Virus record (IMG/VR): IMGVR_UViG_3300008448_000046
Span: 56,388 to 76,387 of that record
Strand: one strand, 5' to 3'
Length of the DNA: 20,000 nucleotides
Source: an uncultured virus (IMG/VR IMGVR_UViG_3300008448_000046)
Taxonomy: Duplodnaviria; Heunggongvirae; Uroviricota; Caudoviricetes
In this document: piece after piece, positions 3,160 through 18,517 of the stretch
How positions within the stretch are numbered: the stretch's first letter is position 1
How the letters are laid out: each line of letters opens with the position of its first letter
The notes under the pieces: model-generated
Seen by the model: the letters and a program-made list of their open reading frames with translations, nothing else
The model's database searches: none
What the model was told of the DNA's origin: nothing
Position numbers and translations under genes: made by a program

Positions 3160-3605
3160 GAAACTTCTAATTTGCCTTTTGAAATTGGAACAACGTTAAT
3201 ATATCCGGCTCCTCGAGTAATATCTTGACCTTCTTCGGCTAAGATATTACGAGCAAGGTCACGGAACCATAAATCAACAACAAGCTCGTCTGGATCACCA
3301 TCTAAACCATAACCCGCTTGTCTTAATTGTACAATAAAGTATTCGTTCCAGTCAAGTTCAAAAAAGCCATTTCTAGGATTTTCTGGATTGACCTTAGTAT
3401 CTAAAACAGCAATATAAGGTTCTTGGTTAGCAGTAGCTCGTTCTTTTGGCGTCATTTTAGCCAATTCTTCTTGTTGACGAGCTTCTTCTTCTGCCTTTTT
3501 AGCTGCTTCTTCGCTAGCTTTAGCTTCAGCTAAACGAGCTAATGATTCAGCTCTTTCTTTTTCTAATCGTTCGATGCCCGTTATTTTTTTAATAAAGTTT
3601 TTCAT
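3156..3605 (-). CDS. Hypothetical protein with an N-terminal charged coiled coil
   Basis: Likely start is ATG at 3605, a TAATG overlap with the queE stop. Ala/Glu/Lys-rich helix followed by a globular region (NGFFELDWNEYF). Confidence 0.8.
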   Translation of the reverse strand: MKNFIKKITGIERLEKERAESLARLAEAKASEEAAKKAEEEARQQEELAKMTPKERATANQEPYIAVLDTKVNPENPRNGFFELDWNEYFIVQLRQAGYGLDGDPDELVVDLWFRDLARNILAEEGQDITRGAGYINVVPISKGKLEVS

Positions 3606-4462
3606 TAGGTTCCCCATTCGTTTTTAAATAACGGCACTTGAAGTCGATCACTGTACCGCCATCCTTTTTGCATTGCCATCTGTGCCACTGTTCTATTATT
3701 AAGATTGTACACCCGTTCAACACCCCCGACAGGCATAAGATAAATGTGACCTTCGAAACCGTTATCGCGATATTCTTGAACTGCCTGTTCTGCATCTTTA
3801 AGATCCTCTTCAGTGGCGACTACGAATTTTAGATAAGTGTGTCCTAGTTCTTCATATTCTCTAACGATATCTGGACGTATAGCGTCTTCTTTCTTCTCTC
3901 CGCTTACACCTAGTTTTGGACTCACGCTAAACGTAAGATTGTGATACCCTTGTTTGTGTGTCCACTTTTCTAAGTACTTTCTAAAATCTTTAGATATTTC
4001 TTGAGTACCATTTGTTTCAAATGTTATATCTTTTAATTTTTTCATTTTATCGTGACTTAACAAATCTGGATAAGCACGTTGCCAACCTAGCAAAGGTTCA
4101 CCGCCTGTAATAACAAGATGCTCACTGCGCCATTTATTATAAGGAAGTAATTCCATTATTCTATCAACTATAGCATCTACAGTTAGCATAGGGCTTAGAT
4201 CTTTAAATGCTGGATGCCAACTTGCATAACTATCACAGCCTGTAGTAACTAACGGCAGTTCTTCGTACTTATGAAAAGATTCAATATTGGCATGTGTATA
4301 TGCAATATCATCTGCTTCAATACTAATCTCACCGCGTGGCATACCAAATCCGGCGCATTTAAAATTACAACCGTATGTACGTAAGAAAACAGAAGGAACA
4401 CCCATAAAGCGTCCTTCGCCTTGTATGCTATAAAAAAGCTCTGCTATTTTTATTTTACTCAT
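3605..4462 (-). CDS. queE: 7-carboxy-7-deazaguanine synthase (radical SAM, QueE-like)
   Basis: ELFYSIQGEG...PSVFLRTYGCNFKC...GCDS, VITGGEPLL, FETNGT, SVSPKL and C-terminal RLQV are QueE family signatures. The gene clusters with folE. Confidence 0.88.
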   Translation of the reverse strand: MSKIKIAELFYSIQGEGRFMGVPSVFLRTYGCNFKCAGFGMPRGEISIEADDIAYTHANIESFHKYEELPLVTTGCDSYASWHPAFKDLSPMLTVDAIVDRIMELLPYNKWRSEHLVITGGEPLLGWQRAYPDLLSHDKMKKLKDITFETNGTQEISKDFRKYLEKWTHKQGYHNLTFSVSPKLGVSGEKKEDAIRPDIVREYEELGHTYLKFVVATEEDLKDAEQAVQEYRDNGFEGHIYLMPVGGVERVYNLNNRTVAQMAMQKGWRYSDRLQVPLFKNEWGT

Positions 4463-5810: not shown

Positions 5811-6575
5811 TTATCTTGGAGCAAAATCTTGTTGTAGTTTGATGTTATCAAAGAATTCTTTTTTAGTGCCTTGATCATCTTTGAACGCACCTTTTAATAC
5901 TGTAGTCTGTGTAAGACTACTATGTGCCATAATACCTCGATTCTCACAGCAGCCATGTGTGGCCTGAATGTACACACCTACATCTTTAGCGTCAGTAGCT
6001 CGACTAATTTCTCTTGCAATATCGTTGGCCAGTTCTTCTTGTAGAGTACCGCGTCTAGCACACCATTGAGCGATTCGAGTGTACTTAGATAAGCCAATAA
6101 GTTTATTAGCAGCAATGATACCAATATATGCTACACCATTAACTGGTTGATGATGATGACTACACATACTTCTTAATTCGCTACGTACTACTAACATTCC
6201 TTCATATCGTTCTTCTGAATCGTTAGGAAATGCTGTACAGTCCGGCGCCGGGTCATATCTTCCTGCCATTATTTCGTTGAAATACATTTTAGCAAGCCTG
6301 CGGGCTGTGCCTTTACTGTTAGGATCGTTTTCGCGATCAATCAGCAGTGTGTCTAGTACACCTTCAAATGCTTCTGTAGCTTCATTAATTAAGTGCTCTT
6401 TGTCGCTGTCATGAAGATAGTCGCTGATATTGTCTCCTGCCCAGAAACGCTTTCCTTCTCTTTTCATTTTAGCACGTAGTACAGCAGATAATGTTGATTC
6501 TTGGTAGCCACCATCTCCGGCCATAGCATCTAAGCCAGTCTCGTCGTTGCTTTCATACATTTTGTTATATACCAT
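5811..6575 (-). CDS. folE: GTP cyclohydrolase I
   Basis: TARRLAKMY, SMCSHH (Zn ligands), GLSKYTR, LQEE, HGCCENRG. AAGGA SD. Confidence 0.95.
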   Translation of the reverse strand: MVYNKMYESNDETGLDAMAGDGGYQESTLSAVLRAKMKREGKRFWAGDNISDYLHDSDKEHLINEATEAFEGVLDTLLIDRENDPNSKGTARRLAKMYFNEIMAGRYDPAPDCTAFPNDSEERYEGMLVVRSELRSMCSHHHQPVNGVAYIGIIAANKLIGLSKYTRIAQWCARRGTLQEELANDIAREISRATDAKDVGVYIQATHGCCENRGIMAHSSLTQTTVLKGAFKDDQGTKKEFFDNIKLQQDFAPR

Positions 6576-6593: not shown

Positions 6594-6622
6594 ATTTTAC
6601 AATGTTATTTAGGTTTAGTCAA
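6594..6622 (-). promoter_or_regulatory. Sigma70-type promoter upstream of folE with an embedded CTAAATA
   Basis: TTGACT (6622-6617), 17 nt, TAAAAT (6599-6594). CTAAATA at 6612-6606 lies in the spacer. Confidence 0.65.
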
Positions 6623-7402
6623 CCTTAAAAGAGTATTTTTCTTTACGGCTGCATCAAGAGTATTTAGGTTTACACTATGATCATCTGCATATTTTAATAG
6701 TGCTTCTGTATCTTTAGGAAAACATGCTCCACCGAACCCATAATACTTGTCAGGCCCGGGCACTTGCATATGACTATCGCCTATGCGCTTGTCCATATTA
6801 ATCAAATTAGACAGTTGCCTCCAATTGTAACCTTTCTTATCGGATAATTGATATAGTTCATTCATAAAGACAACTTTTGTAGCAAGGAAACTGTTAATGG
6901 AATATTTGACAAATGCTGCTTCACCGATACCGCATAGTTCAATATGCCTAAGTTCGGTTTGCAGTTGTTTAATAATTCTTATTGCTTCTCTTTGATAAGC
7001 ACCAACAGTGCCGCCAACTATAGTCCATTCTGCTCTAGCAAAGTCTGTTATACCAGATGAGGCTCTAAGAAATTCTGGAACGTAAACTAAATTAGGTAAC
7101 AGTTTACCCCAGTCTTCGTAAAAGTCTGGCGGCGCAGTTACTTTACTAATAATAGTTCCAGTAAATCCAAATTGCAATTCTTTTAAAACACTCTCAATAA
7201 TACTAGTATCACATTGTCCGTCTGCACCTTGCGGACTTGGGACACATATAAACACACAAGAACATTCTTTTTTTAGATCATAGTAAGTTGTGTTCCATCC
7301 CTTGGCTGGATCAATAATAACTGCTTGAAATGGAGGCACTATGCTTTGTGCTATTGCTTCTCCAACATAGCCATGACCAATAATTCCTATTTTTTCATAC
7401 AT
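6605..7402 (-). CDS. UDP-glucose/GDP-mannose dehydrogenase family protein (short form)
   Basis: Rossmann GHGYVG, ICVPSP, PEFLR, KYSINSFLATKVVFMNE, DKRIG and GFGGACFPKD with the catalytic Cys. At 265 aa it lacks the usual C-terminal domain. Confidence 0.88.
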   Translation of the reverse strand: MYEKIGIIGHGYVGEAIAQSIVPPFQAVIIDPAKGWNTTYYDLKKECSCVFICVPSPQGADGQCDTSIIESVLKELQFGFTGTIISKVTAPPDFYEDWGKLLPNLVYVPEFLRASSGITDFARAEWTIVGGTVGAYQREAIRIIKQLQTELRHIELCGIGEAAFVKYSINSFLATKVVFMNELYQLSDKKGYNWRQLSNLINMDKRIGDSHMQVPGPDKYYGFGGACFPKDTEALLKYADDHSVNLNTLDAAVKKNTLLRLTKPK

Positions 7403-7626
7403 TACAAATACTCGCTTAATAATATTTCACATAATACACGATCTTTTTCTGATTTAAATGTAAATGTCATAAAGTGTGTAGTAGGATGACTAGTATATCT
7501 GTGACCAGGTAATCCAAATACTTCCATTACCTTAGCACAGATTTCAGTCCACGGCATATCAGGGTGCTGCCAATTGATCCATACTGTGTGTGGATTTTTT
7601 ATAGTTTCCTTTTTCGGGTATAACAT
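7402..7626 (-). CDS. Hypothetical phage protein
   Basis: ATG at 7626 follows GAGGTGGAG inside the HIT gene 3' end. Its stop is coupled (TAATG) to the dehydrogenase start. Confidence 0.7.
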   Translation of the reverse strand: MLYPKKETIKNPHTVWINWQHPDMPWTEICAKVMEVFGLPGHRYTSHPTTHFMTFTFKSEKDRVLCEILLSEYL

Positions 7627-7963
7627 GTCTAACTCCACCTCTTGGATCCTCCATATCGCCTATACGTCGTGGTATCATGTGTACGTGGGGATACATCACT
7701 GTTTGTCCAGCTGCTTCTCCAACATTTTGGCCGATGTTAAAAGCATCCCACCTTTCAGCTTCAACACCCTCGTGTCCGAACTTGTAGGCTGCTTTGTAGC
7801 ATTCCCAGAGATTGTTCCAGTTTTCTTGGGTAGGCACAAATAACAAATGCCCTTCGGTAACTGCATAAGCGTCTCTGAAGACCCAGAAGTCTTTGGTTCT
7901 GTACTCGATTTCTGTCCACGGTGCTCTTTTTTCATTTAAGGCCTTTTCAATATCTGTCAGCAT
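7559..7963 (-). CDS. HIT-family nucleotide hydrolase
   Basis: DAYAVTEGHLLFVP, FNIGQNVGEAAGQTVMYPHVHMIPRR. The first His of the triad is replaced by Tyr. Confidence 0.9.
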   Translation of the reverse strand: MLTDIEKALNEKRAPWTEIEYRTKDFWVFRDAYAVTEGHLLFVPTQENWNNLWECYKAAYKFGHEGVEAERWDAFNIGQNVGEAAGQTVMYPHVHMIPRRIGDMEDPRGGVRHVIPEKGNYKKSTHSMDQLAAP

Positions 7964-8327
7964 ACTCGTTCCAAACCATATTCATTAATGTAGAATAATT
8001 ATCCCAGGCCTTTTTAACAGCAGGGTTATTATTTCTTGCTTTAATCTCAATCATTTCTTTACGCTTTATATGATTGATGTAATCTTGATCTCCACGAGAT
8101 TTAACAATTACGTCATTCATTCTTTGATCAATTTCGGCTAAGGCATGAAAGTTATCTTTAGGTATTAGAATATCATAACACTCTAAATCTTCTGTAGCAA
8201 AATAAAAATCATGTGCATCCTGATAAGTGCTAACCTGTGGTGGTTTAGCCTTTCTAATAGTGCGTGAACTAGGCCTCAATTGAATATCCCAATTACAGCA
8301 GAAACGATCTAGTTCTTTATTATCCAC
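7947..8327 (-). CDS. Hypothetical protein with a C-terminal NPAVKKAW helix motif
   Basis: Coupled ORF in operon orientation. Confidence 0.75.
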   Translation of the reverse strand: MDNKELDRFCCNWDIQLRPSSRTIRKAKPPQVSTYQDAHDFYFATEDLECYDILIPKDNFHALAEIDQRMNDVIVKSRGDQDYINHIKRKEMIEIKARNNNPAVKKAWDNYSTLMNMVWNEYADRY

Positions 8328-8865
8328 GCCAAAAGTTCTCCCAAGGATATACTATCCAGCAATCCTCTTCAGCCTTGTTAATTTCATTAGCTGAGTAATC
8401 TACTTCTTCTTTGCTGGCAAGATTATTATGAATTACAGCAAAACGAACATTATTGTTCCAAACAGTATCCCAAGCAAAGTGATTTGGTAAACATCCGCTA
8501 GGCCAATCTTTCTTAATCCACGCTATAGTAGCACCGGTGTCGTTGATGTCGTCAACAATAAGAATTTTTTTTCGATAAGCAGGATCAGTTTGAGTACCTG
8601 ACTCCCCTCGTACTTCTTCAGGAACATAACCAAATGCATCTTCGGCCATACCTAAGTCGCTGACACAATCTCCACCGTCGCGTAAACTGACCTGTAATGG
8701 TCGCATAGGAACATCAAGATATTGACTAAGCATTACTGCTGGAACAGCACCTCCTCTTGTAATACCTACAATATAATCCGGACGCCAATTATCATTGTTA
8801 ATTTGTTTAGCTAGTTCAAGAACGTGTCCTTGAACGTTTCTCCAAGTTAAGTAAATTTTTTTCAT
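8320..8865 (-). CDS. Type I phosphoribosyltransferase (xanthine-guanine PRT-like)
   Basis: DYIVGITRGG, PRPP-binding loop ILIVDDINDTGAT, and a Gpt-like C-terminal WIVYPWE. Likely start is ATG at 8865 (ATGA overlap). Confidence 0.9.
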   Translation of the reverse strand: MKKIYLTWRNVQGHVLELAKQINNDNWRPDYIVGITRGGAVPAVMLSQYLDVPMRPLQVSLRDGGDCVSDLGMAEDAFGYVPEEVRGESGTQTDPAYRKKILIVDDINDTGATIAWIKKDWPSGCLPNHFAWDTVWNNNVRFAVIHNNLASKEEVDYSANEINKAEEDCWIVYPWENFWRG

Positions 8866-9074
8866 CGTACACCGTTTGCTAAGGTTGTCCAAAGCTTTCC
8901 AATTTCCTCTTTGCTAAGGAAAAAATCGTAAGTGCTAGTATTAGTTAATTCACCTTCGTCGTTATACTGTTCTCCAGTAAACATAAGATGGTTAAAGCCG
9001 TCTGGCTTTACACAGTTGTTAATTTTTAACCGAAGCTTCCATGCAGCTTGATCTGTTATTAATTGTTCAATCAT
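8862..9074 (-). CDS. Hypothetical phage protein
   Basis: Likely start is ATG at 9074 (ATGA overlap, AGGGG SD). Confidence 0.7.
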   Translation of the reverse strand: MIEQLITDQAAWKLRLKINNCVKPDGFNHLMFTGEQYNDEGELTNTSTYDFFLSKEEIGKLWTTLANGVR

Positions 9075-9440: not shown

Positions 9441-9836
9441 CTACTTGTATCCTTTACGTTCTCTTTCTTTTCCGTCAAAATCTTCTTTAACCATTTTATA
9501 AACTTCTTTAAATTTTCGATATGCGATTTCCAGTCCAGGATATTCTTTACACATTTCTTGAACACGTTCGTAATCTGGAAATCTACCATCAAACTCGTCT
9601 TTATAAAAATTACTAAAAGTAGTAAAAGAATCAATACCAGATAAATCTACTGTTTCTATATTGCCTATTGTATAAGATCCTGAATTATAAGGTGTACCTG
9701 TTAATGTTATAATGTCTGATGTAGTCAAACTTGGAAGACTATTCATATCCCAAGTAACAGTAATGTCCTCGGGCTTTAACGGCTCAAGTTCATCTAAGGT
9801 TATTGTATAAATTGGTTCCTGCGAAGTATTGCTCAC
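9441..9836 (-). CDS. Hypothetical protein with a Thr/Ser-rich N-terminus and helical C-terminus
   Basis: GTG start with a GGAGG SD inside the glycosyltransferase 3' end. Confidence 0.75.
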   Translation of the reverse strand: MSNTSQEPIYTITLDELEPLKPEDITVTWDMNSLPSLTTSDIITLTGTPYNSGSYTIGNIETVDLSGIDSFTTFSNFYKDEFDGRFPDYERVQEMCKEYPGLEIAYRKFKEVYKMVKEDFDGKERERKGYK

Positions 9837-10887
9837 GTAATGCCTCCGTTTGTTTATGCAACATTGGCAGTCTAGTTTCGTAAAAAGTCATATGATCTAT
9901 TATTGTTTTTACCAACATTTGCCTATGGTCCAAATAATTGTCCCAAGTATCTGTCCAGTTGCTAGGATATTTGAATGTGTCAAAATACATTTCTGTATAT
10001 GAAAGTCTGTCTGGAACCATAGGAATAGCATTGAGTACGCATCCTTCATAACAGCTGATGCCTAGGGTTTCTTGTAGGTTAGCACTAAACACAATCTTAG
10101 CTTCGCCTAATAAGTTATGATATTCGTTTTTTGTTAATTCTTGTTCTTGACAAATTACAAATTCATATTGTGGTAACAGTTCTTTTAAATCTCTAAAAAT
10201 ATTGACCTGCTTCTCGGGAGCCAGTCTGTGAGGAAAGAGAATTAAATCACGCTTAGGCATTCCTTGATATTGTGTGAAAATGTCATGAAAATATTCCATA
10301 GGCCATCCTGTGCGTACAACATTAGGCCAATCACCCTTTAACGCATCCTGCAAATCATCTTCTAGCCATGGATTTTCCGTCAGCCCGTTGTTCAATAAAT
10401 TGCGTACAAACATATCAATATGAAAGTTTGTAGCAAAGTAATTATAATCAATAGCATAAAAAAATGACTTCTCGGCATGTCTTACCCAAGGTTCGTTACC
10501 AATTAGACGACCTAAGAAGTCCTGAGGGTCATAACTGCCGGCATGCCATAGTGCGTGTATCTTAATTGGAACACTAAGCAGACTGCTCATATACTTTAAA
10601 TTAATGATACCGGGATGCCAGGCATCAGTAAACACAAAGTGATCAAATGATTTTATCTTACCGGTAGTAAACAGTCTACTAATCTCTTCAGTTTGACGAG
10701 ACTTATAGACATTAGTGCCGCCAAAATTAAGGAAGGCGCCAGGAGTAGTGGCACTAGGAATATCCTCAGGGCCAGATATAACTTGAACATCATAACCTTT
10801 CTTTTTTAAAATACTAGGTAAATGAGATTTCCATTGGGCAGTATACCTTGTTTCTACTGCCTCAAGATCTACTATATAGACTGTCAT
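9790..10887 (-). CDS. GT-B fold glycosyltransferase (GT4-like)
   Basis: ILFPHRLAPEKQ and SANLQETLGISCYEG match the GT4 EX7E donor-binding region. Also WHAGSYD. 365 aa. Confidence 0.8.
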   Translation of the reverse strand: MTVYIVDLEAVETRYTAQWKSHLPSILKKKGYDVQVISGPEDIPSATTPGAFLNFGGTNVYKSRQTEEISRLFTTGKIKSFDHFVFTDAWHPGIINLKYMSSLLSVPIKIHALWHAGSYDPQDFLGRLIGNEPWVRHAEKSFFYAIDYNYFATNFHIDMFVRNLLNNGLTENPWLEDDLQDALKGDWPNVVRTGWPMEYFHDIFTQYQGMPKRDLILFPHRLAPEKQVNIFRDLKELLPQYEFVICQEQELTKNEYHNLLGEAKIVFSANLQETLGISCYEGCVLNAIPMVPDRLSYTEMYFDTFKYPSNWTDTWDNYLDHRQMLVKTIIDHMTFYETRLPMLHKQTEALREQYFAGTNLYNNLR

Positions 10888-11148: not shown

Positions 11149-11544
11149 TTAATATTTGATAAAACTACCATTTTCTCCATCTTCGGAGACTTCAATCCAA
11201 ACTTCTCTGCCTGGATACTTATTGGAAATCATGTCATACAATTCATCTGACATCATTTCGCAACTTTTATGATCTAGCGACAATACAGCTTGTTCGCTAT
11301 TATACAATTTTTCAAGCCATCTTTTAAATTGGATAAACTCGATATCTCTGTCGTTATGAGTAACGCTGATCCACACACGAAAGTGAAAAATATGACGGTG
11401 AGGATGAGCAAGGAACGATACATCATATTCATCTCCTGTTGCTAGGTTAGTGTCTGTGGCTGCTGCCGGGTAACAATGGATCCCTTCCTTACGAAAGGTA
11501 ACCCAAATCATTTTATTTGGACGTACATCTTGTTTAATAATCAT
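11149..11544 (-). CDS. Divergent QueD / 6-pyruvoyl-tetrahydropterin synthase-like T-fold protein
   Basis: GIHCYP...HPHRHIFHFRV (His Zn ligands), SCEM and EVSEDGENG parallel the QueD H...HGH...TxE...VxE pattern. It clusters with folE and queE. Confidence 0.7.
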   Translation of the reverse strand: MIIKQDVRPNKMIWVTFRKEGIHCYPAAATDTNLATGDEYDVSFLAHPHRHIFHFRVWISVTHNDRDIEFIQFKRWLEKLYNSEQAVLSLDHKSCEMMSDELYDMISNKYPGREVWIEVSEDGENGSFIKY

Positions 11545-12588: not shown

Positions 12589-12829
12589 TTTTACTTTCCT
12601 CGTACTGTTTAAAAAGTTTAGTTACAGGTTCCATTCTTTCTTGAAAAATATCCGGACTTGTTTGAGATGTTTTATTCATATCGTAATGATCAGGATAGTG
12701 TCGTAGACACCATCTTGCTTCATCTCTGATAATTTTAGGAACTCGGGGAGTATGCTGCGGGTTACACAAGTTTACTAAAAGCTCTCTTGTTCTAAGCACA
12801 GCTCGAAATCTTTCGTCTGGTAAAGTCAT
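12575..12829 (-). CDS. Small protein resembling the BPSL0761 family
   Basis: MTLPDERFRAV...TRELL...IRDEARWCLRHYP resembles my recollection of that family. Function unknown. Confidence 0.6.
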   Translation of the reverse strand: MTLPDERFRAVLRTRELLVNLCNPQHTPRVPKIIRDEARWCLRHYPDHYDMNKTSQTSPDIFQERMEPVTKLFKQYEESKNDHN

Positions 12830-14358
12830 TCAAATAATGTATCAAAGGTTGTTTGAACAGGTTCGGTTAGTTTAGGAATTTTAATATTAGCAACGTTGGC
12901 GTCAATATCGAATAGTTTATCTGCATAGGTATGAGCGTTTACAGTTCTTTTTCCTGTTGCTCCTCTAGTGCCAATAATACTCATCCAATATTTGGAATAA
13001 TCTTCAATGATTTTATCTGACTTTCCTTTGTCGCTTGTAGAAAATATTTCGTTAACAATGTCCTTATAATAAACTCTATCAAAGCGTTCGTCAACTAACA
13101 TTGACGGAATTTTCCCCAAATCATATTGCCGATTGGCTTCTTGTACAGCATTAATATGCGCCCAAACATTATGCCCCATTTGAATGGCATAGCTAAATGA
13201 ATCCCAACTAGTACTGCCTTCTTTACCAATTTTGTTTAAATCACCAGGTGCATATATACATACATCTTTTATACTACATTGATCAATAATTGGACTAGAT
13301 TCAAAATTTTCAAAAACTGCATCTTGGATCACTACGTCTTTGAATAGTCTAGTATCGTTGGCATACTTTTTGTCGTCAACTGACGGAACCATTCTATATA
13401 CCCATTTAGTTCTATCTTCGATTTCTGTTTGAACATAAATTTGACCGTTTGCGGTTGCAAGGAATGGACTTGCACAGTCAAATGATATAGTAAAGTTTTC
13501 GTTATGGTGTTTTCTTATAGCACGTTGTAAATCAGTTAGTAAGGTAGCCCATTCTAGTTTACTGGTTCCTAAAAAGTGCATCCAGTCTTGTTGATCTTTT
13601 TCTAGCAAGCCGTCGAATCTTAAAGAGTTGATTCTTTTTAGAACTAGATGTATATCACACATGTTTTGACCGCCCATGGCCCAACCGTTAAATGCACGGT
13701 CACTGTACTGCTTAGGGTCACAATACTTTTTCATACGCTGATACCAATCTTCGGCATCTGCGTGATTTTCGCCTTGCAGAACATTTAAGAATTTACAATT
13801 ACCATTTCTGTTGTTTACGAAGTAATCATTATTGATATACGTTCCTTGCACTGCTTCTGCATATGTAGTAATACCGGTAGCCTTTTGTCCTTCCGGACTA
13901 CGAGCGACCCATGCTGGAATATCAAGGCACATACCGTAGTCCATAAGTGTATCCATCCAATTTAACACTTGACTGCGTTTCTTTTGTGCTTTAGGACAGT
14001 TAGGATCTTTCCAATCTGCTTCCCAGACACCTTTACCAATTTGGAAACCGCCCGAGTCACCTAGTACCCATGAAGTACTGCGGTCACGATTACGAAACAT
14101 GTCTTCACTTTCGTCTTGTTTGTTAAGATCTAAGTTAGCATGACCTGCTGAATACAGACAGTGATCATAATAAAATAATCCTTTTTCTGGTTCAAGATAA
14201 TTTAAACTTTCTATACCATTGACAAAACTTTTAGGAATACGTGCAGGGTCAACGTAATTTCCGTACCGTTGCTTACCAATAAAGGTTGCGTAAAACCCGC
14301 TAGTTGCCGGCAAAAAATATGCATAATCGTTTTGAGATGCAGTTAAATTTTTATTCAT
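12826..14358 (-). CDS. TGT-fold guanine transglycosylase, probably a DpdA-like DNA 7-deazaguanine insertase
   Basis: DSGGFQ, LDIP, VLQG, GWAMGG, HFLG and SFDCASP match TGT catalytic motifs. No CxCxxC zinc site. It co-occurs with folE, queD-like and queE next to replication genes. Confidence 0.8.
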   Translation of the reverse strand: MNKNLTASQNDYAYFLPATSGFYATFIGKQRYGNYVDPARIPKSFVNGIESLNYLEPEKGLFYYDHCLYSAGHANLDLNKQDESEDMFRNRDRSTSWVLGDSGGFQIGKGVWEADWKDPNCPKAQKKRSQVLNWMDTLMDYGMCLDIPAWVARSPEGQKATGITTYAEAVQGTYINNDYFVNNRNGNCKFLNVLQGENHADAEDWYQRMKKYCDPKQYSDRAFNGWAMGGQNMCDIHLVLKRINSLRFDGLLEKDQQDWMHFLGTSKLEWATLLTDLQRAIRKHHNENFTISFDCASPFLATANGQIYVQTEIEDRTKWVYRMVPSVDDKKYANDTRLFKDVVIQDAVFENFESSPIIDQCSIKDVCIYAPGDLNKIGKEGSTSWDSFSYAIQMGHNVWAHINAVQEANRQYDLGKIPSMLVDERFDRVYYKDIVNEIFSTSDKGKSDKIIEDYSKYWMSIIGTRGATGKRTVNAHTYADKLFDIDANVANIKIPKLTEPVQTTFDTLFE

Positions 14359-15082: not shown

Positions 15083-15814
15083 TTATTTTGTCTGTGCTGG
15101 GAGAATGTAGTTGTAGTTTACCAGACCACTGTCTACACTGATCATCATAGCTCCAGCATCGCTAATCATCAGTTTTTTGTCTCCGCTTAGATTTAAAATA
15201 CTTAACACTTGCGACACTGGCCATGCCCATGTCTGTTTTAGTTTACTTTCTATATCTGATTGGAATACAAAGCTTCCTGCGTGAGTGCCTGCATCACCAA
15301 AGAATAACACTAAATTGTTGTTTTCAGTTTTTACTTGGAAAGTCGACTCTTCACTATGTGCTTGAGCTTGATACTTTAGTCTTTGAATTGAACTAATGCT
15401 CGGTTCAATACTAACATCCCAATTGGCCCCTTTGAATTTAACTGTTTTAAGTTTTTCGTTAATAATGTCGGCGTTCATAAAACGATAATCGTTTTTAAAG
15501 TCACCAGTTGTATTTTCAAAGTGAATGCCTGTTGGAATTTCTTCGCCATTACGCACAGCTCTAGTTAATTCGATTTTAGCATCTTCTTTGTATTCCTCAT
15601 AGTTTAAGTGAAGTTTTAGTTTATCAAGATTAGGCATTCCAAAAACTCCTTGGAACTCTTCAACCGGCTCATGTGATTTTGCAGAGAGTATAACTGATCT
15701 ATCTTCAGCCATTGCTTCAATGGCAGTCTCAGTCTCAGTTCCTGTAATTTTTACCAAAGGTAAAATAGACAGGCTATGTGTATGTGCTACGATGTCTGTT
15801 AAAATATCTTTCAT
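15083..15814 (-). CDS. Probable DNA polymerase sliding clamp (gp45/PCNA-like)
   Basis: 243-aa acidic protein directly downstream of polB. The alternating helix/strand two-domain pattern ends in YNYILPA, reminiscent of PCNA/gp45. Confidence 0.7.
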   Translation of the reverse strand: MKDILTDIVAHTHSLSILPLVKITGTETETAIEAMAEDRSVILSAKSHEPVEEFQGVFGMPNLDKLKLHLNYEEYKEDAKIELTRAVRNGEEIPTGIHFENTTGDFKNDYRFMNADIINEKLKTVKFKGANWDVSIEPSISSIQRLKYQAQAHSEESTFQVKTENNNLVLFFGDAGTHAGSFVFQSDIESKLKQTWAWPVSQVLSILNLSGDKKLMISDAGAMMISVDSGLVNYNYILPAQTK

Positions 15815-15832: not shown

Positions 15833-15862
15833 TTGTATTTAGAATTTTCAACTAAAATCAAA
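15833..15862 (-). promoter_or_regulatory. Possible composite promoter upstream of the clamp gene
   Basis: TTGATT, 18 nt, TACAAT, overlapping CTAAATA (15842-15836). Confidence 0.45.
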
Positions 15863-18517
15863 TAAATTGTTAAACGTATTATTTTGTTCAGTTGATCGAA
15901 CATCCCAATTTAGGACCCCGATTAAGTTTTCTAGCTTGTTATCTATAATAGTTGCTTCCATTTCTAAATGATCAAATGGCAGCTCCTGGAACCACTTAGG
16001 CAATCGTAGTTCATCTGTAGGATAAGCTACTGATGTAAACCCTAATGGATTTTCTTTTAATTTGCATACAATGACTTTCATTCCGTCGACAATCTGCATA
16101 GAATATTTGTCATCGTACATACGCTTTAGCGTATTCCAATTTATGCTTGCACGAACATGTCCAGGCATATTAGCTTTACCCTGCCGCTTTTCTTTAGCTT
16201 CATAGTCAGTAATATTGTTAGCACGTTTTGGACTACCTTTTTCCCAACCAGGACGAGATTTAAATTCAGTCCTAAATTTAGAAATATGCTCTAGCACTTG
16301 TTCTTCATTGGCACCTGTTAATACTTTTTCAAGTACATCGCTCAGAAAGTTCTGAATAAATTCTGGCGTATCGCTACGTTTAAGATCCAGACCCATGGCT
16401 TTAATCTTACCAGGCTTTCCATCTGTGTCTGTGCGCTTGCCTTCTTTATCGTAATACAATACTGCATAACGTTTCTTAGTAATGAACAATGCTTTTGAAC
16501 CAACAATTTCTCGACCAGCTTTAATTACTTCGCCTCTGGATTTAGGACAATGAAATGTATTTTCCATAAATCCGGCAAATGTATTGTTTACCTCTTGGCC
16601 AATCTGATCGTAAAGCTGTACTACTGTTTCTTTGGTCCACGGGATCGCGCCCGAGTCGATATCTTTTTTAAGCGACCGATAAGCAGAAAAATAACAGCTA
16701 TCAGTATCGCCGTAGATAATAGCTTTTCCAACATGATCATATTCTCCAGTAATTATTTCGTTGACTTTACTTGCCATGTGTTTGGCAATTTGCCGTCCGG
16801 TAAGCGTCGTTGATTGACCGATTCTTTTATCGAAAAACCTACAGCCAGGATTAAGAATAGCACCATACAAACTATTAAGATTAATCTTCTTAACCAACTG
16901 TCGCTTATCCCAATATTCCTCTTCAATTTTGTTACTAGCATTTATACACTCTTTAAGTTTAGCCTGCATTTCTTTACGTTCTGCATACCAACGCTTTAAC
17001 AAACCTGGAATAATACCTTCTTTTTCATAGGTAAAAATAGTTCCATTTGCAGACATCATCCACGGTTGATTACTGTCGTAGATTAATTTATAAATTTCTG
17101 CACCACTCATGACAACTTCTTCACCGTTTTCAAAGTCAATAGTGATAGCCGTCGCTTTGTCTTTTTTAATTACAGATTCAAATTCTAAACTACCAAACAT
17201 GCCTTCCCATGCTGCTGCAAATGATTTCTTTTTAAGAGTCATTTGTTCATGGACGTATGTTTCTGTATATACAGGCCTTAGTTGTCCAACAATAGTTTCC
17301 GGACCCATGTTTAATGCTCTAATAGCACTAGGATAAAGACTGTTAATATCTAATGAACCAACCCAGTCTTGCAAGCCTTCTTTAGGATATGCAACATAAG
17401 CACCTGCTGCTTGTGTATCTTCATCTTCATCACGCCTTGGTCTATTAGGCACCTGAAAGCCACGTTGATGTGCTTCATTAATGATAGCCTGCTCTGTAAC
17501 TGCTACTGCACCCATAGTAGTCTGCAGTAACACAGTACATTCATGTGCAAGTGTGTTGGCTAGATCTATAAATTTTAGTTTATTGTCTAGTTTATTCAGT
17601 AGTGCTACGTCTTGTCTGTTATAGACAATAAATTTATGAAAGTCATTGTTGTATAATTGATCTAAGGTACCTTCATAAACAGTCTTGGTTTCACCGACTT
17701 CCATTTCTCCAATAGCATCAAGTCTATAAGAATGCCTTTCTTCATAGGTGTATTTTCTATAAAGTTCAAGACTGTCTAAATGAACTCTCCCTATCAGATC
17801 ATAGGTCACGGCAGATTTACCGTATTTTTCGTATTCTCGTTTTTTAGGATACTGTCCGAACAGACAGAATCTTTTAGTATCTTCCTTACTTAGTACACGA
17901 GTAACACGATTAACAGTATAAGGAATATCATATCCTTCACTGTTCCATCCACTTAAAATGTCTGCATCTTCGATAAGATCAAGAAATGTTTCTAACATAT
18001 CTCCTTCGTTTTCAAAAAGATGTGTATCAGGTACGTCTTTAATAAGATCTCTAGCTTGATCTATTTTTAAAGTTTTAGGTGGAATAGCTAAAGTGATTAA
18101 TTGATTAAGCCATTTTAAGTATACAGTGATTGCCGTAATAGGCATAAAAGCATCTTCCGGAGTACTGTATCCTCTTTCAGGGTCGAAGTCTACCTCGATG
18201 TCAAAGAATGCAATGTTTAGTTTTGGTGCATCTTGATTAAGGTAGTTCTCACTAAGACATACAAATACTGGATTGATGTCTGCTTCATAAAGTTTTTTAT
18301 TACTGTGGATAGCCATTTCCTTACGGAAATCTTTTGAATTTCTACAAACTACGCGAGACAGCGGGTCTCCGTAAATGCTTGTAAATTTACCACGAGGATC
18401 GGGATAGTAAAAAGTATAACGAACTGGAAAATCTTTAAATTCTCTTTTTCCCTTGTTGTTTCTTTCTACTATTTTGATGACATCAGAATCTCTATCAAAA
18501 TAAGCGTCTACGTACAA
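15848..18517 (-). CDS. polB: Family B DNA polymerase with a 3'-5' exonuclease domain
   Basis: Exo motifs FDIEVD, GWNSEGYDIPY and YNRQDV. Pol motifs SLDINSLYPS, KINLNSLYG, YGDTDS and KKRY. TTG start with AGGAG SD. Confidence 0.97.
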   Translation of the reverse strand: MYVDAYFDRDSDVIKIVERNNKGKREFKDFPVRYTFYYPDPRGKFTSIYGDPLSRVVCRNSKDFRKEMAIHSNKKLYEADINPVFVCLSENYLNQDAPKLNIAFFDIEVDFDPERGYSTPEDAFMPITAITVYLKWLNQLITLAIPPKTLKIDQARDLIKDVPDTHLFENEGDMLETFLDLIEDADILSGWNSEGYDIPYTVNRVTRVLSKEDTKRFCLFGQYPKKREYEKYGKSAVTYDLIGRVHLDSLELYRKYTYEERHSYRLDAIGEMEVGETKTVYEGTLDQLYNNDFHKFIVYNRQDVALLNKLDNKLKFIDLANTLAHECTVLLQTTMGAVAVTEQAIINEAHQRGFQVPNRPRRDEDEDTQAAGAYVAYPKEGLQDWVGSLDINSLYPSAIRALNMGPETIVGQLRPVYTETYVHEQMTLKKKSFAAAWEGMFGSLEFESVIKKDKATAITIDFENGEEVVMSGAEIYKLIYDSNQPWMMSANGTIFTYEKEGIIPGLLKRWYAERKEMQAKLKECINASNKIEEEYWDKRQLVKKINLNSLYGAILNPGCRFFDKRIGQSTTLTGRQIAKHMASKVNEIITGEYDHVGKAIIYGDTDSCYFSAYRSLKKDIDSGAIPWTKETVVQLYDQIGQEVNNTFAGFMENTFHCPKSRGEVIKAGREIVGSKALFITKKRYAVLYYDKEGKRTDTDGKPGKIKAMGLDLKRSDTPEFIQNFLSDVLEKVLTGANEEQVLEHISKFRTEFKSRPGWEKGSPKRANNITDYEAKEKRQGKANMPGHVRASINWNTLKRMYDDKYSMQIVDGMKVIVCKLKENPLGFTSVAYPTDELRLPKWFQELPFDHLEMEATIIDNKLENLIGVLNWDVRSTEQNNTFNNLFDFS

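Follow-up and report, generated by a model that had tools for sequence, protein, structure and literature searches.

The C-terminal tail of the T4/RB69 polymerase gp43 binds the sliding clamp, and the C-terminal gp45-binding epitopes of gp43, gp55 and gp33 are described as interchangeable in the accessible text of PMC2988020. According to the same text, the linker before the epitope of gp55 is divergent and tolerant of change, and an internalised gp55 epitope still supports activation (PMC2988020). The present work concerns a putative clamp-docking peptide at the end of P0001, a DpdA3-like DNA guanine transglycosylase encoded in 20,000 nucleotides of DNA from the uncultured virus IMGVR_UViG_3300008448_000046 (Caudoviricetes); this stretch, called the window below, is the final 20 kb of a virus record of 76,387 bp (GC content 34.7%).

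Modifications of DNA with 7-deazaguanine are regarded as post-replicative insertions made by DpdA enzymes. In eukaryotes, enzymes of DNA modification or repair, among them DNMT1 and UNG2, are tethered to PCNA by the PIP box, a short motif lying in a disordered region. Among phage DNA-modifying enzymes, the T4 alpha-glucosyltransferase was reportedly found by Sommer et al. in 2004 to bind gp45. The enzyme co-purifies with gp45 and the pull-down has been repeated (PMC13216743); the accessible part of that paper states that the alpha/beta ratio is set by expression level and enzymatic activity and not only by clamp affinity, and describes no polymerase-like tail motif for the enzyme (PMC13216743).

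DpdA3 has been defined as a subfamily of phage 7-deazaguanine DNA transglycosylases, with phiST CGPG_00065 and proteins of Campylobacter phages as its short founding members (Cui, Hutinet et al. 2023; accessible text of PMC10516641). In phiST, the DpdA3 gene lies between genes of the 7-carboxy-7-deazaguanine (CDG) pathway and polymerase genes, and the alignment of the phiST query covers about 260 residues (PMC10516641, header row of Data S13), whereas P0001 has 510 amino acids (aa). DpdA3 is reported to replace all guanines, its efficiency being left unexplained in the text consulted, and the discussion of the same paper states that DpdA3 enzymes are inactive when expressed alone in E. coli (PMC10516641). 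The word 'clamp' has a count of zero in the main text of that paper. A search limited to open-access papers and bioRxiv found no paper that links a DpdA to a sliding clamp. An earlier reading of this DNA, made from the sequence only, had likewise known of no clamp-tethered DpdA; as regards DpdA its claim agrees with this search, but a clamp-bound modifying enzyme as such has a precedent in the T4 alpha-glucosyltransferase and gp45. Each component is thus already known: DpdA3, clamp-binding tails, and a phage DNA-modifying enzyme that binds a clamp.

A common C-terminal motif in transglycosylase and polymerase

The features on which the comparison rests are the following.

12826..14358, minus strand: P0001, DpdA3-like DNA guanine transglycosylase, 510 aa, with a catalytic domain of tRNA-guanine transglycosylase (TGT) fold at about residues 1-462 and then a disordered tail
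12829..12972, minus strand: disordered C-terminal tail of P0001, residues 463-510, a linker with two short helix-prone motifs (from the predicted local distance difference test, pLDDT, of the model)
12829..12855, minus strand: terminal motif QTTFDTLFE, residues 502-510, putative clamp-docking peptide, 21.3 bits by position-specific scoring matrix (PSSM)
12907..12927, minus strand: internal weaker copy YADKLFD, residues 478-484, 5.9 bits by PSSM
15083..15814, minus strand: P0003, PCNA-type sliding clamp, 243 aa (model and Foldseek), an open reading frame (ORF) between P0001 and P0002
15848..18517, minus strand: P0002, T4-type family-B DNA polymerase, 889 aa (Pfam DNA_pol_B 1.8e-37; PHROG 262 8.7e-202)
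15851..15877, minus strand: C-terminal tail of P0002, TFNNLFDFS, residues 881-889, presumed clamp-binding epitope by homology with T4/RB69 gp43

Translation of P0001 (12826-14358, minus strand) gives 510 aa ending in ...KLTEPVQTTFDTLFE at the stop codon, and P0002 ends in ...STEQNNTFNNLFDFS (fuller stretch ...EQNNTFNNLFDFS); the coordinates, sequences and two LF tails first reported for these proteins were correct. Polymerase tails from related loci served to build a PSSM, which was run over all 23,867 positions of the 76 non-overlapping ORFs of the record; it scored the polymerase tail at 29.3 bits and the P0001 tail at 21.3, the next-best site reaching 10.1. P0001 and the polymerase are also the only two of the 76 ORFs to terminate in xLF[DE] and to have a hydrophobic residue three positions earlier. 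The pattern Q..TFxxLF[DE], which had been proposed for both tails, holds in its core, TFxxLF[DE], conserved across homologues as [TSN]-F-x-x-L-F-[DE]; the glutamine varies among them and has to be dropped. QTTFDTLF resembles the PIP-box pattern Qxx[h]xx[aromatic][aromatic], but with the glutamine unconserved in P0001 homologues membership of that class is not claimed.

In the model of P0001, pLDDT falls below 50 at residues 466-481, 483-486 and 491-510, and two short helices modelled within the tail, at 478-482 and 504-509, coincide with YADKLFD and TFDTLFE. The linker is divergent, the tail region differing between homologues in both length and sequence. YADKLFD aligns with the STxFANLFDE of homologues, directly after the conserved GTRGATGKKTVNAST, which is the position where most homologues have their sole copy of the motif. 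Close homologues (about 80% identity) have one of two architectures: either a variable linker is followed by a terminal motif (NNFADLFD, TTFEDLFE or TFANLFDE, each at the stop codon), or the motif (e.g. STQFANLFDE) stands directly after GTRGATGKKTVNAST, with about 35 aa of acidic extension behind it. The worn internal copy and the strong terminal copy of P0001 look like the relocation of a short linear motif.

Conservation and specificity of the motif

The counts that follow are based on 212 distinct complete homologues of P0001, drawn from 284 loci (four viral-contig scans, three phage records and the window). A strict motif, [FY]xx[LMF]F inside the last 70 aa, was found in 169 of the 212 homologues (80%) and in 48 of the 2147 remaining distinct ORFs with 150 aa or more (2.2%), so that the conservation of the tail, on which the sequence-only reading depended, was borne out. 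The strict motif was terminal in 41 homologues and internal in 128. The internal motif is followed by a conserved acidic segment of about 35 aa, EEF[TS]ExE...L..LE or DDSGLDE..L..LE (e.g. L005:10001-11452, L001:5998-7620), and no counterpart of this segment was found in the polymerase. A looser regular expression, which was also used and which gives some false positives within the last helix of the domain, was the only pattern matched in a further 27 homologues. The clamp is present at 204 of the 212 homologue loci and a complete polymerase tail at 192; in 180 of these 192 related polymerases, [FY]xx[LMF]F lies within the last 12 aa. Among the 50%-identity representatives of the whole P0001 family (963 hits), the motif also recurs across several deep clades. 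The family is abundant, with matches to over 7,900 clusters formed at 90% identity.

When all neighbouring ORFs were clustered, 109 families with at least four members were obtained, and any member at or above the threshold of 12 bits by PSSM was found in three of them: PolB (204/220), DpdA3-like (92/212) and a MutH-like family (3/7). No member of the other 106 neighbouring families reached 12 bits. The MutH-like proteins, of about 193 aa, occur sporadically a few kb 3' of DpdA3 in some relatives and not in the window, and their likeness to MutH is weak and sub-threshold (E 0.006-0.018). A BLAST search from one member recovered six of the seven, of which five have an F/Y/NxxLF tail at the C-terminus, as in STYVSLFEETV or PHFDNLFEPA (each at the stop codon), and the sixth ends in ...MKALFEAAA. 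This family may be a clamp-docked or mobile nuclease. Its members include:

L006:10512-11087, MutH-like protein of about 193 aa
L012:8931-9506, the same family
L018:13788-14369, the same family
L042:11735-12331, the same family
L152:11557-12141, the same family
L146:6908-7492, the same family

A search of five large related records with a DNA pattern for FxxLF[DE] followed by a stop codon gave matches at background level only, the same as a reversed-pattern control.

Co-variation within genomes and bacterial homologues

The polymerase tail and the DpdA3 motif of the same genome resemble each other more than shuffled pairs do. Over 177 distinct pairs, the mean BLOSUM score was 13.51 for same-genome pairs against 11.99 +/- 0.34 for shuffled ones, and the identities were 3.15 against 2.86 +/- 0.06; in 5000 shuffles the values of the real pairs were never attained. 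At L159 and L235, for instance, polymerase and DpdA3-like protein both end in ...FFEF, at L030 both carry NFFE, and in Vibrio phage 2.275.O the polymerase ends in NNTDLFDW and the DpdA3-like protein in NNNDLFGW.

A clade of DpdA3-like proteins without the tail, as judged by regular expression, was found in bacterial genome records (L310-L327; contigs up to 1.58 Mb), mostly of Alphaproteobacteria, with Sphingomonas, Azospirillum and Novosphingobium among the genera. At 18 of the 19 genome-collection loci, a P0003-type clamp and a T4-type PolB are both absent within 10 kb, and the motif is absent from all 16 complete homologues among these 18. At the one remaining genome-collection locus, where PolB and clamp are both present, the motif is internal (IFE) and an acidic tail comes after it. 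Three representative clades without the tail by regular expression were also aligned (A3-A5). Their close relatives are absent from the viral collection (best 28-38% identity), and the viral loci fetched for them only widened the diversity of tailed loci.

Identity of the transglycosylase

The AlphaFold2 model of P0001, computed on a 54-sequence alignment, has a pLDDT of 90.2 and a predicted template modelling score (pTM) of 0.87 and contains a TIM-barrel fold of TGT type; every Foldseek match listed is a tRNA-guanine transglycosylase (E 3e-7). A profile of the family (A1) was aligned with E. coli TGT by hhalign (probability 88.4%, E 2.8e-6), which pairs GDSGGFQ (D101) of P0001 with TDSGGFQ (D89), SFDCASP (D294) with MFDCVMP (D264), LDIP (D146) with FDEC, and GWAMGG with GYAVGG. 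In the E. coli enzyme we take D264 to be the nucleophile and D89 the catalytic aspartate, the other two pairs presumably covering the substrate-pocket aspartate and the GG motif. D101, D146 and D294 are invariant in the 54-sequence family alignment. Canonical tRNA-guanine transglycosylases have a Cys3-His zinc site after the barrel. No cysteine is invariant or nearly so in the 54 sequences, and the hhalign alignment stops before the zinc-site region.

P0001 had no match in Pfam (E 0.01), PHROGs or NCBIfam, and nothing meaningful was found among PDB sequences by phmmer and profile search. The cut-off of the canonical TGT family, Pfam PF01702, was not reached, two of the 54 family members touching it at E 0.043 or weaker. 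The nearest cultured relatives are proteins of the PA5oct group, Vibrio phage 2.275.O and Sinorhizobium phage Phosso; the PA5oct protein QCG76197.1 is 33.8% identical to P0001 over 98% of its length (E 1e-79). In Data S1 of PMC10516641, QCG76197.1 is listed as DpdA3 beside FolE, QueD, QueE and DpdL. PA5oct DNA is resistant to several restriction enzymes, which is read as modified G by the authors in the accessible text of PMC12191111. The following genes of the same pathway lie in the window.

5811..6575, minus strand: FolE, GTP cyclohydrolase I, first step of 7-deazaguanine synthesis (Pfam PF01227 3.4e-39; NCBIfam FolE 4.6e-41, under the curated cut-off)
3605..4462, minus strand: QueE-like radical SAM enzyme, 7-carboxy-7-deazaguanine synthase (NCBIfam QueE models; Pfam Radical_SAM 2.7e-6)
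11149..11544, minus strand: homologue of DpdL (PA5oct QCG76199.1, 54% identity, E 5e-44), predicted to decarboxylate 7-carboxy-7-deazaguanine in the dDG pathway

The five best NCBIfam matches of 3605-4462 are all QueE models (E 3e-16 to 3e-10), every one under its curated cut-off. Data S1 of PMC10516641 gives QCG76199.1 as DpdL. No QueD was recognised in the contig, a 76-kb fragment. Because its PA5oct homologue is listed as DpdA3 and FolE, QueE-like and DpdL genes stand in the window, P0001 is best placed in the DpdA3 branch, among its long members, and within a deazaguanine module of phiST type, that is, with DpdL. The TGT/DpdA assignment of the sequence-only reading agrees with the fold, the catalytic aspartates and the published listing of the PA5oct homologue. 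The source phage is an uncultured relative of PA5oct and the Rak2-like jumbo phages.

Clamp and polymerase

The ORF between the two tailed proteins, which had been called a probable clamp, proved to have a PCNA-type fold by model and Foldseek. The model of P0003 (pLDDT 91.5, pTM 0.88) has the two-domain fold of a clamp protomer and gave at least 500 Foldseek matches at E <= 0.001, all 50 of those listed being PCNA, viral PCNA-type clamps or the 9-1-1 clamp. The best match was yeast PCNA (E 5e-11, TM 0.62-0.70), and over the yeast, archaeal and African swine fever virus (ASFV) PCNA structures E was 5e-11 to 3e-9 and TM 0.58-0.70. No Pfam match was found for P0003 at E 0.01, the gp45 and PCNA models included, and its sole family match was PHROG 12062, for which PHROG assigns no function; homologues in phages PAC2 and Phosso are annotated as PCNA or sliding clamp. 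A clamp-loader-like gene of the DNA_pol3_delta2 type (PF13177, 44.5 bits) is present in G001, a complete relative of 372 kb.

The thumb region of P0002 aligns with residues 723-851 of the RB69 polymerase. By homology with T4/RB69, the P0002 tail would bind the P0003 clamp. The longest ORF of P0002 begins with TTG.

Proposed function of the tail and alternative explanations

Clamp docking is probably what the DpdA3 tail serves for, and is the most likely of the functions considered, because the tail has all the sequence-level properties of a T4-type clamp client. As in gp43, gp55 and gp33 of T4/RB69, a short hydrophobic-acidic peptide ends a flexible and divergent linker, the epitope is common to the polymerase and another DNA-acting protein of the same phage, and the cognate clamp is encoded nearby. 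The differences are that the client is here a base-exchange enzyme rather than a polymerase or a transcription factor, its binding being putative, that P0003 is PCNA-like by fold without a Pfam gp45 match, unlike T4 gp45, and that most P0001 homologues have an internal motif followed by an acidic extension. With the T4 alpha-glucosyltransferase and gp45, the locus has in common a phage DNA-modifying enzyme linked to the replication clamp, a coupling to replication that has been proposed there and is putative here; the T4 enzyme glucosylates 5-hydroxymethylcytosine (hmC), whereas P0001 would exchange guanine bases.

In the proposed mechanism, the TFDTLFE peptide would dock at the hydrophobic ligand site of the PCNA-like clamp P0003, and the clamp would retain P0001 on newly replicated phage DNA, where the enzyme would swap guanine for a 7-deazaguanine supplied by FolE, the QueE-like enzyme and DpdL. 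We infer that the DpdA3 motif binds the same clamp site as the polymerase tail, that base exchange is co-replicative as a consequence of clamp docking, and that the inserted base is a 7-deazaguanine. The earlier interpretation, in which the enzyme would ride the clamp at the fork, is on the whole partly supported. A wider picture, possible but doubtful, joins these elements into a clamp-dependent, co-replicative exchange of guanine for 7-deazaguanine in tailed DpdA3: the peptide would be an address label general to this phage group and used as well by a mobile MutH-like nuclease, and the acidic extension after the internal motif would be a second regulatory or docking element.

Several observations weigh against clamp docking. 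The motif is mostly internal and followed by an acidic extension, unlike the strictly C-terminal epitopes of T4. The co-variation effect is modest and its statistic ignores phylogeny. Sixteen of the 212 homologues match neither regular expression; in most of these the site bears a degenerate copy of the motif (F..HF, F..NF, VFDFGED). On inspection, an LF motif is absent from L089, L090, L091, L094 and L097, of which L091 and L097 are regex-negative and the other three had passed the looser pattern; the motif-less L091, L094 and L097 adjoin a PolB with tail and a clamp. No further clear terminal-tail protein was found among 500 ORFs scanned in G001, where the generic PSSM performs poorly on the phage's own divergent polymerase tail (8.9 bits). 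The alignment of P0002 with the RB69 polymerase ends at residue 851 of 903, short of the tail, and the homology with T4/RB69 is the sole basis for the binding of the P0002 tail to P0003. Finally, CPT_0056 (258 aa; L339:10676-11452), which is the putative short DpdA3 in Campylobacter phage CP220, has no likeness to the tail of the CP220 polymerase.

The shared peptide might instead dock on another component of the replisome, such as the single-strand-binding protein, the helicase or the clamp loader, and DpdA3 would still be coupled to replication. That the motif is common to the polymerase and a DNA nuclease-like family shows no more than a common partner, and the T4 gp43 tail itself has two reported gp45 sites in the accessible text of PMC2988020; however, the homologous T4/RB69 polymerase tail binds the clamp (PMC2988020), the motif is hydrophobic-acidic like clamp ligands and the clamp gene stands between the polymerase and DpdA3 genes at 204 of 212 loci, and a different hub is rather unlikely. 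It is also unlikely that the motif serves DpdA3 itself, by self-association, by autoinhibition with the acidic extension as a DNA mimic or by control of turnover, with the likeness to the polymerase a product of convergence. The 128 homologues with an internal motif and a conserved acidic segment that the polymerase lacks are what such a role would account for; yet the motif co-varies with the polymerase tail of the same genome, is missing in the 16 complete bacterial homologues without a nearby phage clamp or polymerase, and lies in a region modelled as disordered, where it has moved between internal and terminal positions with its sequence kept.

The listed fold matches, all of them tRNA-guanine transglycosylases, would suit a tRNA substrate, as for canonical TGT, or some other substrate, with a tail unrelated to DNA modification. 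This is very unlikely in view of the DpdA3 listing of the PA5oct homologue (PMC10516641) and the restriction resistance of PA5oct DNA (PMC12191111), both from the accessible parts of these sources, the presence of FolE, QueE-like and DpdL genes in the same array, the apparent lack of an invariant zinc-site cysteine in the 54 sequences, and the linkage of the gene with PolB and the clamp at 204 of 212 loci. Only five to six positions of the short motif are informative, and two tails could in principle come to resemble each other by chance; against frequencies of 80% and 2.2%, a score of 21.3 bits with the next-best site at 10.1, and an occurrence in three of 109 families, such a coincidence is hardly credible.

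Short DpdA3 and other TGT-domain proteins

When the A1 profile was run against Campylobacter phage CP220, nothing was found at E <= 1, and Pfam TGT gave nothing either. CPT_0056, matched as the putative DpdA3 solely by accession numbering, is half as long as P0001, and the CP220 polymerase (L338:1757-4405) ends in ...TETLEEW. Clamp tethering as the cause of complete replacement in all DpdA3 phages was rejected, CPT_0056 being tail-less; since this putative short DpdA3 has no polymerase-like tail, tethering would mark the long jumbo-phage branch rather than DpdA3 as a whole. The P0001 and PA5oct proteins are a long, tailed DpdA3 branch, because the phiST query spans about 260 residues, the putative CP220 member is short and tail-less, and the profile of the P0001 family misses CP220.

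A TGT-domain protein of Vibrio phage vB_VcorM_GR7B (L332:5674-7290) matches P0001 weakly (E 2e-3). It was considered as a motif carrier and set aside, its C-terminus being a long Lys-rich tail, which may be another means of DNA retention.

Neighbouring genes

An ORF of 365 aa at 9790-10887 (minus strand) is 40% identical (E 2e-89) to the product of the gene directly 3' of DpdA3 in PA5oct. This ORF lies within the deazaguanine array, as do a short UDP-sugar dehydrogenase-like ORF (6605-7402, minus strand), a HIT-family ORF (7559-7963, minus strand) and a phosphoribosyltransferase of xanthine/guanine type (8320-8892, minus strand), which could salvage excised guanine. Outside the window, the record holds one giant ORF of 4599 aa (G000:C1:14444-28243), and two giant ORFs of about 4040 aa are present in the 372-kb relative (G001:C1, 223339-235464 and 149557-161697). 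A run of three radical SAM genes, of which one has a SPASM domain, lies at G000:C1:41703-45566, also outside the window; the product of the first ends in ...KQFSYLFEQDDIPL, a weak look-alike of the motif that is probably due to chance.

Significance

If the doubtful wider picture of a co-replicative, clamp-dependent exchange is correct, it would help these jumbo phages to attain very high guanine replacement, and dependence on the clamp could explain why DpdA3 fails when expressed alone in E. coli. A putative clamp-docking peptide of polymerase type on a large branch of DpdA3 provides a definite mechanism, open to test in PA5oct and other cultured phages. The peptide also suggests adding the cognate clamp and clamp loader to heterologous tests of these enzymes, and a clamp-docked DpdA3 would extend the T4-like 'toolbelt' of the replisome clamp to base-exchange enzymes.

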